Numbered from the stretch's first letter, positions 3,169 through 9,750 are shown. The stretch: DNA of 64,000 bases from Flavobacteriales bacterium (GCA_041391845.1 JAWKNG010000003.1:235053-299052); one strand, 5' to 3'. The notes: a model not told the origin generated them from the letters alone. Made by a program: numbers and translations.

Positions 3169-3175
3169 CCTTCCC

Positions 3176-3318
3176 CTACCGACTCAAGTACATCGACCTC
3201 TCCCCATACACCTGCCTCTGCCACGGCCCGCAAAGCCGGGCTTCGCAGTGACAGAAAACCGCATCGGAGTGCGCGGCAGGCTCCGCCTTCAGGTCCTTGA
3301 CAGTAGATCGCAGCCTCC
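3176..3318 (-). repeat. Copy A of the carB 3'-tail repeat (degenerate); on the minus strand it encodes ...VKDLK..[39-bp palindrome insert]..RQVYGERSMYLSR*
   Basis: It is similar to 6940-7022 and to the copies at 6850-6939 and 6508-6625. A 2-nt indel breaks the frame upstream of the KDLK-like part. Confidence 0.8.
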
Positions 3319-3324
3319 CACCCC

Positions 3325-3666
3325 TCACCGCCCCTCCTCCACAACCGAACTCCCGCTCGACCCTTCCCCACTGGTCCAGCGCCATGCCTCGTGCAGGCGG
3401 ATGCGCCCATCGGGGAGAAGCTCCGGCGTTGACCGGCACGCACCGGTCATCAGCTCGCCGCGGTCGTTCACCTGGTGGTGGCGCATGTCCAGGCGGCCCT
3501 CGGCATCCACCAAGGCGATCAACTGCCCGCTGACGATGCGCCCACCGGAATAGCGGCAGGTGACGATGCGGCCGGTCTGCAGGTAGTGGAACACCACTTC
3601 GGGCGAGACCTCGCCATTGGCGCTGTTGCTCAAGGGGATGAAGCGGCGGTCGTGGTAGTTGATCAT
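3325..3666 (-). CDS. Hypothetical protein (113 aa), high GC, no recognisable domain
   Basis: This is an ORF with an ATG at 3666 (MINYHDRRF...). Overlapping alternative frames look like compositional artefacts. Confidence 0.35.
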   Translation of the reverse strand: MINYHDRRFIPLSNSANGEVSPEVVFHYLQTGRIVTCRYSGGRIVSGQLIALVDAEGRLDMRHHQVNDRGELMTGACRSTPELLPDGRIRLHEAWRWTSGEGSSGSSVVEEGR

Positions 3667-4159
3667 GGGGTGTTGGCGAGCGTGTGAAGGTTCGAGATCA
3701 GAGCGATGGATGGGAAGGAACGGATGCGAGCCGTAGGGCGCCGGCTCAAGAGTGGCGGACAGACCCGATGCAGGTTTGGGGGAGGGGCATATATTGAGTG
3801 CCTCATAGATGCGACGGAGAGATAACCGCACTGTAGTTCACCCCTCATCCTTTCGGCCTTTCCACGAAATGCTGGACAGGTACACCTATGTTTCTGTTCG
3901 TTACAAACTAGCAACCCAATCGGCCTTCATTAAGTCGTTGGACAGCTACCCAAGACCATGGACTAGCGCATCGTGGGGTCGAACGAACAGAGCGTTATCA
4001 AGCAAAGATCTTGTCGGCGACGCCAGCCACAGCGACCATATCAAGCAGGATGTGCTTGAACGGGAGATCACTGCCGCTGGCAGTTCCCTGGCTGAATGGC
4101 ATGCCTATCTGTGCACGCCTTTCACAGGTGAAAACGAAGATTGGGGAACGGAACTCGCG

Positions 4160-6625: not shown

Positions 6626-6848
6626 GCCCAGCTATTGACCTAAGTTCGTTGGCAGCCCTTTCGACCTTTTCCTTGTAGTCGGGCTGAACAATCTCGACAA
6701 GAGCAGGTTCCAAAGCGCCTTCGAGGTTCCACAGTGCTGCTCGTAAGGCAACATCGCTCTCGTCCGCACGATCAGCCAACCAGTCGAACAACACAAGCGC
6801 TGCGCGACGATCGATCTTGATCTGAACTTCTGGTGATTCCATCGTCAT
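6621..6848 (-). CDS. Small hypothetical protein (75 aa, acidic)
   Basis: An ORF with an ATG at 6848 or 6842, lying between repeat copies D1 and C. No domain is recognised. Confidence 0.35.
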   Translation of the reverse strand: MTMESPEVQIKIDRRAALVLFDWLADRADESDVALRAALWNLEGALEPALVEIVQPDYKEKVERAANELRSIAGQ

Positions 6849-6849
6849 C

Positions 6850-6939
6850 GACTCAGATACATGGAACGCTCCCCATACACCTGCCTCTGCCGCGGCCCGC
6901 AGAGCCGGGCCTCGCAGTGACAGAACGGATCCAAAGTTC
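6850..6939 (-). repeat. Copy D1 of the carB 3'-tail repeat, immediately 3' of the carB stop; it encodes MRTLDPF-CHCEARLCGPRQ-RQVYGERSMYLSR*
   Basis: It contains an in-frame 39-bp palindrome (6887-6925). The terminal 13 codons are identical in peptide to the carB end. Confidence 0.85.
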
Positions 6940-9750
6940 TCATCGCGACAAGTACATTGAACGTTCTCCATAGACTTGTCGGAAGAAGGGGTCTTTCAAG
7001 TCTTTGATGAAGTAAATCGCCTCACCCGTGCTCTTCATCTCAGGCCCCAGGCTCTTGTCCACATTGGGGAACTTGTCGAAACTGAAGACGGGCACCTTGA
7101 TCGCATAGCCATCCAGGCGCGGCTTGAACTGGAAGTCCTTGAGCTTGGCGCCGAGCATCACCTTGGTGGCCCAGTTCACGTAGGGCTCGCCGTAGGCCTT
7201 GGCGATGAAGGGCACCGTGCGGCTGGCGCGCGGGTTGGCCTCGATCACGTACACCACCTCGTTCTTGATGGCGAACTGGATGTTCACCAGGCCCACGGTC
7301 TTCAGGGCCAGCGCGATCTTGTGCGTGTGCTCGCGGATCTGCTGGATCACCTTCTCGCTGAGGTCGAAGGGCGGGAGCACGGCGTTGCTGTCGCCACTGT
7401 GGATGCCCGCCGGTTCGATGTGCTCCATGATGCCGATGATGCGCACCATCTCGCCGTCGCAGATGGAATCGCTCTCCGCCTCGATGGCGCCATCGAGGAA
7501 GTGATCGATGAGGATCTTGTTGTCGGGCATCAGGCGCAGGATGTCCAGCACCTGGTCCACGAGCTCCTCCTCGTTGATCACGATCTTCATCTTCTGGCCG
7601 CCGAGCACGTAGCTGGGGCGCACCAGCAGCGGGAAGCCGAGTTCGCGGCTCAGCTTCACGGCCTCCTCGGCATTGTTCACCGCACCGAACTTCGGGTACG
7701 GGATGCCCAGGTCGCGCAGCAGTGAGCTGAAGCGCTCGCGGTCCTCGGCCATGTCCAGCGCGGCGTAGCTGGTGCCGATGATCTTGATGCCGTACTTCTC
7801 CAGCTTCTCCGCCAGCTTCAGCGCGGTCTGCCCTCCCAGCTGCACGATGACGCCCTCGGGCTGTTCGTGCTGGATGATGTCGTAGATGTGCTCCCAGAAC
7901 ACGGGCTCGAAGTAGAGCTTGTCGGCCGTGTCGAAGTCGGTGCTCACCGTCTCCGGGTTGCAGTTGATCATGATGGTCTCGTAGCCCAGCTCCTTGGCCG
8001 CGAGCACGCCGTGCACGCAGCAGTAGTCGAACTCGATGCCCTGGCCGATGCGGTTGGGGCCGCTGCCGAGCACCACCACCTTCTTGCGGTCGCTGCGCAC
8101 GCTCTCGTTCTCCTCTTCGAAGGTGCTGTAGTAGTAGGGCGTCCGCGCGGGGAACTCACCGGCGCAGGTGTCCACCAGCTTGTACACGCGTTTGATGCCG
8201 AGCTCGTTGCGCTTCTTGTACACCTGGCTTTCGAGGCAGCCGAGCAGGTGCGCCACCTGGCGGTCGGCGTAGCCCTTCTGCTTGGCCTCGAAGAGCAGGT
8301 CGCGCGGGATGGTGTCAAGCGTGTACTTGCTCACCTCCTTCTCGGTGAGGATCATGTCCTCGATCTGCTTAAGGAACCAGATGTCGATCCGGGTGAGGTC
8401 GTGGATCTTGCTGAAGGGGATGCCGAGCTTGATGGCATCGTACACGTGGAAGAGGCGGCTCCAGCTGGGGTTGGCGAGGCTTTCGAGCAGTACGTTGGGG
8501 TCGGTGGTCTCCTTGCCATCAGCACCCAGGCCGTTGCGCTTGATCTCGAGGCTCTGGCAGGCCTTCTGCAGCGCCTCCTGGAAGCTGCGGCCGATGCCCA
8601 TCGTTTCGCCGACGCTCTTCATCTGCACTCCAAGCCTGCGGTCGCTGCCCTCGAACTTGTCGAAGTTCCAGCGCGGCACCTTCACGATCACGTAGTCGAG
8701 CGTGGGCTCGAAGAAGGCGCTGGTGCCGGTGATGGGGTTCTCCAGCTCATCCAGGCGGTAGCCGATGGCGAGCTTGCTGGCGATCTTGGCGATGGGGTAG
8801 CCCGTGGCCTTGCTGGCGAGCGCACTGCTGCGGCTCACGCGCGGGTTGATCTCGATGGCGTAGATCTCCTCCTTCTCGTCGGGGCTCACGGCGAACTGCA
8901 CGTTGCAGCCGCCGGCGAAGTCGCCGATGGCGCGCATCATCTTGATGGCCTCGGTGCGCATGCGCTGGTAGGTGCGGTCGCTGAGGGTCATGGCCGGCGC
9001 CACGGTGATGCTGTCGCCGGTGTGGATGCCCATCGGATCGAAGTTCTCGATGGAGCAGATGATGGTGACGTTGTCGTCCTTGTCGCGCAACAGCTCCAGC
9101 TCATACTCCTTCCAGCCGAGCAGCGCCTTGTCGATCATCACCTCGTGGATGGGGCTGATCTGCAGGCCGTGCTTGAGCAGCTTGTCGAACTCGGCGGGGT
9201 CCTTCACGAAGCTGGCGCCGGCGCCACCGAGCGTGTAGCTGGCGCGGATCACCAGCGGGAAGCCGAACTCCTGCGCCACCTTCTTGCCTTCGAGAAAGCT
9301 GGTGACGGTCTTGCTGGGCGCCATGGGCACGCCGATGCGCTCCATCAGCAGGCGGAACTGCTCGCGGTTCTCGGTGATGTCGATGGCCTTGGTGTCCACG
9401 CCGATCATGCGCACGCCGTACTGTTCCCAGATGCCGAGCTTCTCGCATTCGATGGCGAGGTTCAGCGCGGTCTGTCCTCCCATGGTGGGCAGCACGGCGT
9501 CGATCTTGTGCTTCTTGAGGATCTCCTCGATGCTCTCGGTGGTGAGCGGCTTGAGGTAGACGTTGTCGGCCGTGACCGGGTCGGTCATGATGGTGGCCGG
9601 GTTGCTGTTGATCAGCGTGACCTCGATGCCTTCGTTGCGGAGGGAGCGGCTGGCCTGGCTACCGGAGTAGTCGAATTCGCAGGCTTGACCGATGACGATC
9701 GGCCCACTCCCGATGAGCAGGACCGACTTGATGCTTTGATCTTTGGGCAT
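6940..9750 (-). CDS. carB: Carbamoyl-phosphate synthase large subunit (936 aa). It has both ATP-grasp halves, but the C-terminus is aberrant and there is no MGS-like domain
   Basis: It shows the duplicated CPSase architecture, a KLGYETIMINCNPETVSTD-type motif, an oligomerisation domain, and the MKSVGETMGIGRSF (first half) versus MKSTGEAIYFIKD... (second half) motifs. Confidence 0.9.
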   Translation of the reverse strand: MPKDQSIKSVLLIGSGPIVIGQACEFDYSGSQASRSLRNEGIEVTLINSNPATIMTDPVTADNVYLKPLTTESIEEILKKHKIDAVLPTMGGQTALNLAIECEKLGIWEQYGVRMIGVDTKAIDITENREQFRLLMERIGVPMAPSKTVTSFLEGKKVAQEFGFPLVIRASYTLGGAGASFVKDPAEFDKLLKHGLQISPIHEVMIDKALLGWKEYELELLRDKDDNVTIICSIENFDPMGIHTGDSITVAPAMTLSDRTYQRMRTEAIKMMRAIGDFAGGCNVQFAVSPDEKEEIYAIEINPRVSRSSALASKATGYPIAKIASKLAIGYRLDELENPITGTSAFFEPTLDYVIVKVPRWNFDKFEGSDRRLGVQMKSVGETMGIGRSFQEALQKACQSLEIKRNGLGADGKETTDPNVLLESLANPSWSRLFHVYDAIKLGIPFSKIHDLTRIDIWFLKQIEDMILTEKEVSKYTLDTIPRDLLFEAKQKGYADRQVAHLLGCLESQVYKKRNELGIKRVYKLVDTCAGEFPARTPYYYSTFEEENESVRSDRKKVVVLGSGPNRIGQGIEFDYCCVHGVLAAKELGYETIMINCNPETVSTDFDTADKLYFEPVFWEHIYDIIQHEQPEGVIVQLGGQTALKLAEKLEKYGIKIIGTSYAALDMAEDRERFSSLLRDLGIPYPKFGAVNNAEEAVKLSRELGFPLLVRPSYVLGGQKMKIVINEEELVDQVLDILRLMPDNKILIDHFLDGAIEAESDSICDGEMVRIIGIMEHIEPAGIHSGDSNAVLPPFDLSEKVIQQIREHTHKIALALKTVGLVNIQFAIKNEVVYVIEANPRASRTVPFIAKAYGEPYVNWATKVMLGAKLKDFQFKPRLDGYAIKVPVFSFDKFPNVDKSLGPEMKSTGEAIYFIKDLKDPFFRQVYGERSMYLSR

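Follow-up and report, generated by a model that had tools for sequence, protein, structure and literature searches.

The locus considered here is an array of small genes and recoded gene ends behind carB, which encodes the large subunit of carbamoyl-phosphate synthase, in a 64,000-nucleotide (nt) stretch of DNA from a Flavobacteriales bacterium (GCA_041391845.1, JAWKNG010000003.1:235053-299052; this whole stretch is called the window, and positions are counted from its first letter). Several described systems resemble it. Integrons and clusters of attC sites lacking integron integrases (CALINs), a class that does not require an adjacent intI, share with it small, mostly single-gene cassettes of putatively promoterless open reading frames (ORFs), which stand in one orientation behind a fixed entry point, apparently with the newest nearest the entry, and whose cargo is diverse, partly defensive, and largely of unknown function, with strain differences and reshuffling. 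The genomic islands SGI1 and MGI integrate at trmE. Tandem islands at gene 3' ends are like the carB array in that each element brings its target a substitute 3' end, older elements are pushed inward by successive integrations, and partial copies of the target delimit the elements. Tycheposons are integrative islands at the 3' ends of genes or tRNAs (bioRxiv 10.1101/2020.12.28.424599). Rhs and type VI secretion system (T6SS) loci carry displacement arrays without an integrase, for which homology-facilitated illegitimate recombination has been proposed (PMC5361080; Kirchberger et al. 2017). In these and in contact-dependent inhibition (CDI) loci (see also Jackson et al. 2009), as at carB, a conserved gene is the homology anchor, a 3' end comes in, the old end is pushed downstream to leave strings of 5'-truncated "orphan" ends, and no dedicated recombinase is known. 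Here, we report the architecture of the carB arrays, the polymorphism of their units among strains, replacement of the carB end, and the signature of selection that the repeated ends bear. We favor, with moderate confidence, the explanation that a strain-variable cassette array has grown onto the carB 3' end by serial, homology-driven 3'-end displacement.

In the window, carB (6940-9750, minus strand; Pfam CPSase_L_D1/D2/D3) encodes a 936-amino-acid (aa) protein of the short Bacteroidota form, 96% identical to P0001 and 80% identical to CarB of other Flavobacteriales; an exact-sequence look-up of this protein matched no record. Bacteroidota CarB normally ends in a short C-terminal tail, whose sequence differs between lineages. 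Window CarB ends in GPEMKSTGEAIYFIKDLKDPFFRQVYGERSMYLSR, with RQVYGERSMYLSR as the final peptide, and the segment now attached to carB, MKSTGEAIYFIKDLKDPFFRQVYGERSMYLSR (6940-7038, minus strand), recurs downstream. A degenerate DNA pattern encoding RQVYGERSMYLSR and its stop codon matched the window four times, always on the minus strand, and matched none of 100 shuffles (chance expectation, 0); the matches are the end of carB itself (6940-6981), copy D (6845-6886), copy C (6505-6546), and copy A (3176-3217). A fifth copy, B (5271-5312), has decayed to W*GHRERSMYLSR* and is seen at the DNA level. Three exact re-encodings and one decayed copy of the tail peptide are thus found downstream of carB on its own strand, in agreement with a preliminary description of the window, which had also recognized that the copies spell the same peptide with different codons: the first Ser is TCA, TCC, AGT, or TCG, and Arg is CGT or AGG at one site and CGA, AGA, or CGG at another. 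Serine codons have switched between AGY and TCN among the copies, and such switches can be kept only through selection on the protein. The lower GC content between the copies was likewise borne out (0.41-0.54 between 3.75 and 6.6 kb versus 0.60-0.68 in the flanks). A scan of the 64-kb window for other families of gene-end repeats found none.

The copies, all on the minus strand, differ in completeness. Copy D (6845-6939) is a 95-nt unit without cargo, composed of a remnant ending in DLKDPF, a GC hairpin, and then RQVYGERSMYLSR; it lies directly behind carB with no gene in between and so departs from the arrangement first described, in which every copy stood 3' of a minus-strand gene. Similar cargo-less units of 66-101 nt were found at the related loci L106, L114, L116, L157, and L165. 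In copy C (6505-6621), the tail forms an entire micro-ORF (MKSTGSLPAGGRAIYFIKDLKDPFFRQVYGERSMYLSR), which is 38 codons long and includes a small hairpin insert. It starts at the Met of MKSTGE and runs to the terminal SR and stop, its ATG overlaps the stop of a 75-aa ORF (TAATG), and, as initially noted, it re-encodes MKSTG and has a 14-nt core, ATGAAGAGCACGGG, in common with carB. Copy B (5271-5395) retains FIKDLMEP, a hairpin, and the decayed end given above, and copy A (3176-3318) is a tail with both hairpin modules (ending in KDLKAEPAAHSDAVFCHCEARLCGPWQRQVYGERSMYLSR). Both A and B had been called frame-broken; this holds for B, whereas in A the last 13 codons are intact and the break lies further upstream only. 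In copies D, B, and A, the GC hairpin CCCGGCTNTGCGGGCC replaces the F before RQVY. More generally, two hairpin modules are inserted in frame in displaced tails (window 3225-3290 and 6893-6925; L160, L125, L169, and others). Module 1 reads EEPAPHVDAG after KDLK and has the stem CCCCGC/GCGGGG, and module 2 reads CHCEARLCGPWQ before RQVY and has the stem GGCCCG/CGGGCC, with variants of other stem sequence. Neither module is ever present in a tail attached to carB.

Metagenome contigs, from which the close relatives were also taken, were scanned with the degenerate tail pattern. The tail was carried by 87 stretches, mostly from activated sludge and freshwater, many of which hold two to five or more exact-peptide copies behind carB; with decayed copies counted, arrays reach at least seven units (L139). 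The CarB proteins of the array-bearing contigs, annotated as "Flavobacteriales bacterium," form a tight group at least 88% identical to window CarB, and the next relatives outside this group are 84% and 80% identical. In the array-bearing clade, tail copies occur behind carB only, so the repeat is indeed the carB 3' end, as had been proposed, and not a generic terminator. Among 72 other Bacteroidota carB loci, scanned within 10 kb, none had a second copy of its own tail. The sister lineage REVYGERSMYLSR has one displaced copy with the same E variant, and the sister lineages RETYAKRSMYLSR and REVYSQRKMYMSR have no displaced tail copies. At L175 (12835-22811), of the RETYAKRSMYLSR lineage, carB and an element resembling the Flavo-1 RNA motif are followed by a defense island with YhcG, a Metallophos and SMC-like pair, and HsdM, and this island contains no tail copies. 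The region behind carB therefore is an insertion hotspot even without duplication of the gene end.

The sequence between successive tail stops was taken as a closed unit. The 81 closed units are 66-7963 nt long (median, 614 nt) and mostly consist of a single ORF; in 68 of 75, the longest ORF has the orientation of carB. The ORF start usually lies -4 to +18 nt from the preceding tail stop, with an ATGA overlap in 13 cases, and where the next tail starts at the MKSTGE ATG, the cassette ORF stops within -4 to +7 nt of this ATG in 23 of 36 units. Spacings of -4 to +7 nt are seen at either end of the micro-ORF. Gene callers annotate the 40-codon tail ORFs as genes (L169). Given these abutting or overlapping junctions, the array reads as one long polycistron in which carB is followed by an ORF, a tail micro-ORF, a further ORF, and so on. 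The ATGA and TAATG overlaps suggest a translational-coupling relay along an extension of the carB operon, in which the tail micro-ORFs would presumably be translated.

Cargo is diverse, with 390 ORFs falling into 259 clusters. Recognized products include a YhcG/DUF1016 PD-(D/E)xK nuclease (PADLOC candidate PDC-S02), GmrSD, TIR, HEPN, and AbiU2 proteins, a nucleotidyltransferase, an S41 peptidase, and a CAP domain, alongside many lipoproteins and orphans. The YhcG/DUF1016 gene is the commonest cassette (a cluster of 11) and occupies positions 1 to 4. This cassette bears perfect palindromes of 22-26 bp, AATTGT(C/G)CAACAGCTGTTG(G/C)ACAATT, two of which follow the tail stop by 7-60 nt while the third is at about +463 within the gene (L102 138-201, L137 607-676, L146 1127-1196, L165 8382-8447, L168 13471-13492, and others). 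A lone palindrome of this kind persists behind a displaced tail in L168 and L171, where the YhcG gene is absent. Palindromes behind tails were considered as a general boundary signal, and this was rejected; they belong to the YhcG cassette. L168 and L171 also form the group that differs by ORF integrity: in the same local gene order, a single cassette ORF is intact in L168 (12815-13417) and indel-riddled and broken in L171 (12815-13358). The flanking tails of the two differ by a few bases (one in the last 42 nt of each), and the full peptide is kept in L171.

Comparison of near-identical strains revealed that cargo and unit content turn over. L131 and L139 share cassettes that are 96-99.7% identical, yet they differ by one unit adjoining carB and by four internal units. 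The extra L131 unit next to carB is 953 nt long, and the carB fragment of 213 nt at its distal side is identical to the resident carB end of L139, whereas the end now attached to L131 carB has about 24 synonymous differences; the only identical block between the two carB-end copies of L131 is one of 40 nt at the left edge. This pattern indicates that carB received a new, recoded end with the insertion and that its previous end was displaced. Similarly, L147 has an extra 1051-nt unit between carB and its YhcG cassette, with a displaced remnant of only about 24 nt, and this cassette and the one that directly follows carB in L102 are 99.3% identical, so that the same cassette stands in position 2 in one strain and in position 1 in the other. 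With these two presence/absence polymorphisms, the close-relative comparison supports stacking by repeated insertion next to carB with a replacement 3' end, as initially postulated. At the four-unit indel, a hybrid tail stands at the junction, and since the parental tails are near-identical over about 70 nt, ordinary homologous recombination can explain this event. Of 92 displaced carB fragments, 29 have their left edge at 32-33 codons and 11 at 59 codons, the two peaks of a distribution that otherwise scatters between 12 and 155, and the right-hand junctions or fragment edges of the clean recent insertions lie at -71 codons (L131) and -8 codons (L147). carB is full-length in every array. Results were mixed on which of its two tails, the upstream or the downstream one, moves along with a cassette.

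Among 31 carB genes of the clade, third-position diversity increases from about 0.2 in the gene body to 0.36-0.45 within the final 60 codons, where synonymous diversity is twice that of the body. Identity over the last 99 nt is about 0.80 whether the bodies are 89% or 97.5% identical, and this uncoupling implies that the carB end comes from a pool of its own that is older or evolves faster. The peptide is exact in 127 of the copies recognized at the DNA level and carries one to three changes in 31; a few copies are wrecked. Displaced and attached tails of the same contig differ at a saturated proportion of synonymous sites (pS 0.77), with a ratio of nonsynonymous to synonymous differences (pN/pS) of 0.11; the ratio is 0.08 when displaced tails are compared with their nearest attached tails in the data set and 0.02 in the control, in which attached tails take the place of the displaced ones, all three being biased somewhat downwards by a detection profile built from exact copies. 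Codon usage is equal in attached and displaced tails. The tails evidently were under purifying selection for most of their history, which fits a model where each incoming tail becomes the working end of carB, and the protein-level conservation with nucleotide divergence seen in the window extends to the clade. Tail identity is no different within arrays (0.779) and between arrays (0.784), and the longest identical run between neighboring tails has a median of 11 nt. In-place duplication and concerted evolution are both at variance with this equality, which instead agrees with the earlier suggestion of independent donors, as tails sharing an array differ as much as tails taken from the pool at random.

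According to the explanation we favor, incoming DNA, either a small circle or a donor fragment, would carry a carB 3' segment, synonymously recoded, with a cargo ORF behind it and would recombine with the resident carB through the carB homology. carB would then end in the incoming tail with the cargo just behind it, and the resident end would be pushed downstream as a 5'-truncated fragment. Repetition would stack units with the newest next to carB, and recombination between tails or shared cassettes would delete and reshuffle them. The route may be Campbell-type integration of small circles or homology-facilitated illegitimate recombination; we infer that homology-driven recombination, rather than a dedicated recombinase, is at work and that circular intermediates exist. 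As each incoming tail would become the working end of an important enzyme, its peptide would be under selection while its codons were free to drift, and with identical runs of a median 11 nt between adjacent tails, arrays should be protected from RecA-mediated collapse.

Several observations weigh against this explanation. At only about 78% identity, adjacent tails make poor substrates for RecA, and this sits badly with the high turnover seen among near-identical strains. With their shared orientation, compact single-ORF form, and range of sizes, the units look as if a dedicated cassette system had produced them. About one-third of the displaced copies start exactly at the MKSTGE ATG, which could mark a fixed crossover. 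The arrays occur at one locus in one clade and are absent from the 72 Bacteroidota carB loci and from the sister lineages with other tails, although a mechanism relying on homology in general should be found more widely. Nor does the explanation account for the first origin of units composed of a tail and an ORF. A recombinase acting in trans may also exist; the searches for one covered carB contexts and the top 25 listed Pfam families.

A rival explanation is an integron-like mechanism or one like that of integrative mobile elements exploiting Xer (IMEX), a possibility that we take seriously but consider rather unlikely. It states that a trans-acting recombinase recognizes a site in the carB tail, for example around GAGATGAAGAGCAC or AAGGACCTGAAGGATCC, and inserts and excises circular one-gene cassettes, each with a tail copy, the variable left edges being due to later erosion. 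The integron-like anatomy (putatively promoterless single ORFs in one orientation, with a median of 614 nt, diverse cargo, and reshuffling), the restriction to one locus in one clade, and repeats too divergent for efficient RecA recombination all speak for it, as do two junctions that map to the KDLK/hairpin region. So does the sharp MKSTGE ATG boundary in 29 of 92 displaced copies, inside which the cassette ORF stop codon falls; however, this peak can equally be explained by selection for a translatable micro-ORF. A fixed site is difficult to reconcile with the right-hand junctions of the clean insertions, which lie at -71 and -8 codons and not at one site, or with the tails themselves, in which every synonymous site varies and no invariant nucleotide core exists. 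An attC site is an imperfect palindrome, folded as a single strand, with R''/L''-L'/R' boxes and a GTTRRRY core. Neither a conserved motif just behind the tail stops nor a conserved GTTRRRY at the boundaries was found, and five tail types folded as DNA yielded no significant attC-like fold (z from +0.14 to -1.05), so that the attC-type integron alternative of the preliminary description received no support. In Xer-type systems (IMEX or pdif modules), a conserved dif-like site of about 28 bp flanks each module; here, a comparison made without a dif model for the clade detected no invariant nucleotide block in or beside the tails. Two degenerate tail patterns had no match (0) on the viral contigs of IMG/VR, which thus provided no phage or satellite attP. 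The searches for a recombinase covered about 100 contexts around carB, the rest of the genomes lying outside them: the Pfam-annotated contexts of ±10 kb (L168-L180) contained no recombinase and no member of the Phage_integrase family, and no recombinase was among the top 25 Pfam families listed for the 150 largest downstream ORFs and the 43 other ORFs of the window. With edges scattered over 8-155 codons in addition, the site-specific integrase with a fixed att core that had been proposed at first is not sustained.

Homing driven by a nuclease, in which a cassette nuclease such as YhcG (PD-(D/E)xK, PDC-S02) would cut unoccupied or non-recoded carB tails and repair from an occupied donor would co-convert tail and cassette, with synonymous recoding as immunity to cleavage, seems improbable to us. 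YhcG is the commonest cassette (the cluster of 11, at positions 1 to 4) and has conserved palindromes of its own, an arms race over a DNA target that lies within a coding sequence would lead to just such saturated synonymous divergence under strict peptide constraint, and a diversity gradient of the kind left by co-conversion runs into carB. However, most arrays, including that of the window, have no YhcG or other recognizable nuclease, YhcG is also found behind carB without tail duplication (L175), and PADLOC lists it as a defense candidate. An explanation without any mobility, by which the repeats would be in-place duplications of the carB end, a generic terminator or repetitive extragenic palindromic (REP)-type repeat, or an assembly artifact, with unrelated genes lying between the copies, is most improbable and is already contradicted by the results. 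Hairpins and the Flavo-1-like element do accompany some copies, but tails within an array are as diverged as random pairs and show no concerted evolution, units are present or absent among strains with 96-99.7% identical neighbors, the repeat keeps the carB frame and peptide even through AGY-to-TCN serine switches, it is found solely behind carB, and the same architecture occurs in dozens of independent assemblies.

Set beside the known systems, the carB array is mechanistically closest to the C-terminal displacement arrays of polymorphic-toxin loci. Like these, it presents an intact gene, here carB, followed by 5'-truncated 3' copies of varying length, and an incoming 3' end. In the Rhs, CDI, and T6SS loci, the displaced tips are the variable payload, namely toxin domains with their immunity genes, whereas at carB the variable toxin tips and cognate immunity are missing: all tips encode one peptide in varying codons, an unrelated ORF behind the stop forms the payload, and the host gene encodes a housekeeping enzyme. 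The array shares with integrons the one-orientation, single-gene cassettes and their reshuffling, as seen in the units on the carB strand and in the repositioned shared cassette. It differs in that neither intI (which is optional for a CALIN) nor a folded attC was found at the carB arrays, that the repeat reproduces the final 8 to 150 codons of an essential gene and is presumably translated, and that the entry point lies inside a coding sequence and is rebuilt at each insertion, with junctions at several positions. Direct repeats of the target 3' end, and restoration of carB by the element, recall the 3'-end islands; these, however, are kilobases long, encode or borrow a tyrosine recombinase, and use a fixed att core, whereas the carB units measure 0.3-1.5 kb, contain no integrase that we found, and have variable boundaries rather than one crossover core. 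Full-text literature searches yielded no description of carB cassette arrays or recoded gene-end micro-ORFs.

The native 3' end of carB can probably be recognized by a structured element of about 100 nt that lies directly 3' of copy B in the window (5139-5245, minus strand; Rfam RF01705, 22.4 bits). This element was the only match in an Rfam scan of the region. Like the Flavo-1 RNA motif, it has GAUUGNAGCGGAAA twice, flanking a variable hairpin; unlike a true member, it scores 22-34 bits (22.4 in the window, 33-34 in L165 and L091), below the gathering score of 42, and the RF01705 match is antisense to carB transcription. Flavo-1 itself has no function known from the literature (PMC9723704). 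An nhmmer profile finds the element in 40 related loci, in one constant orientation and mostly just behind the carB tail, which makes it probably a native carB 3' untranslated region or terminator; examples are L091 287-380, L111 1012-1120, and L165 347-447, and its first stem covaries (CGGC/GCCG versus CCCC/GGGG). The gene order in L180 and L148 is carB, a new tail, one HEPN_AbiU2 cassette, a decayed tail, the Flavo-1-like element, a 181-aa gene, and an Avidin_like gene, and this order identifies a tail followed by the Flavo-1-like element as the native carB 3' end. Copy B with its element (5139-5312) is therefore most likely the original end of window carB, and copy B is probably the original, displaced tail. 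The history of the window may then be read as displacement of copy B by a unit with a 335-aa ORF, then by one with the 75-aa ORF, and finally by a cargo-less tail replacement, copy D. Copy A, with both its hairpin modules, lies beyond the native neighbor gene of carB, and the assumption that it is the oldest copy is doubtful, given that copy B fits the native end.

The 75-aa cassette ORF (6621-6848, minus strand) has an ATG that overlaps the stop of copy D (ATGA) and a homologous unit in L157 (L157_u2). The 335-aa cassette ORF (5466-6473, minus strand) is an orphan with an Rx4H motif, despite which it matched no HEPN or Abi profile. Two AT-rich ORFs of 252 and 164 aa, predicted to encode membrane or coiled-coil proteins (3809-4567 and 4596-5090), are on the plus strand, opposite carB, which corrects the strand first assigned to the cargo; to judge from their position between the native 3' element and the native neighbor, this stretch (3809-5090) is a separate insertion. 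Searches of the window cargo against Pfam, PADLOC, PHROGs, and NCBIfam assigned no credible family, the sole match being a sub-threshold one of the plus-strand ORFs to DUF3761 (E 0.0026, 18.7 bits versus a cut-off of 29), and the labels Abi/HEPN and DUF3761 given at first have no further support in these databases. The native neighbor is a 113-aa ORF (MINYHDRRF..; 3325-3666, minus strand) that is conserved next to carB in relatives (BLAST, 85-88% to L111, L152, and L156) and whose L180 homolog is recorded as PF26421 Avidin_like. A convergent flank gene for a 582-aa protein with a CarboxypepD_reg-like N terminus (1420-3168, plus strand) marks the end of the array and had no match among the related loci. 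Farther out, about 12 tandem copies of the 8-nt CTGAGCAC/CTGTGCAC at 1147-1266 lie at the 5' end of a LytTR-domain ORF (644-1234, minus strand) and could be a slipped-strand, phase-variable tract. On the other side of carB, L169, the closest relative (96% CarB identity), has a ParE-like toxin gene with a small partner ORF just upstream of carB (9325-9791); this gene is absent from the window, which has a SpoIIAA-like ORF in its place.

It is tempting to speculate, though only tentatively, that these arrays are an undescribed cassette-capture platform of uncultured Flavobacteriales, functionally analogous to the integron. As part of this speculation, the recoded 3' end of an essential gene would be both a cassette-associated recombination site and a translated 32-codon micro-ORF that relays ribosomes between putatively promoterless cassettes, the process might be driven by a trans-acting recombinase or by a specialized homeologous-recombination route, and synonymous recoding might be actively selected for array stability or nuclease immunity. 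Integrons are rare in the phylum to which the array-bearing clade belongs. If this is true, an integron-like store of accessory and defense genes would have been reached by a second and independent route, apparently without the integrase/attC machinery. The tails also provide a natural, large-scale case of synonymous recoding of a repeated coding segment, with the peptide identical and the codons saturated, that is tied to genome architecture and bears on how repeats escape recombination and how mobile DNA uses essential genes as safe harbors. In practical terms, the tail sequence is a possible handle for recovering new defense genes by polymerase chain reaction, as in attC-based cassette amplification. 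For the abundant Flavobacteriales of wastewater and freshwater, the arrays constitute a hypervariable locus at the strain level that could be used for strain typing.

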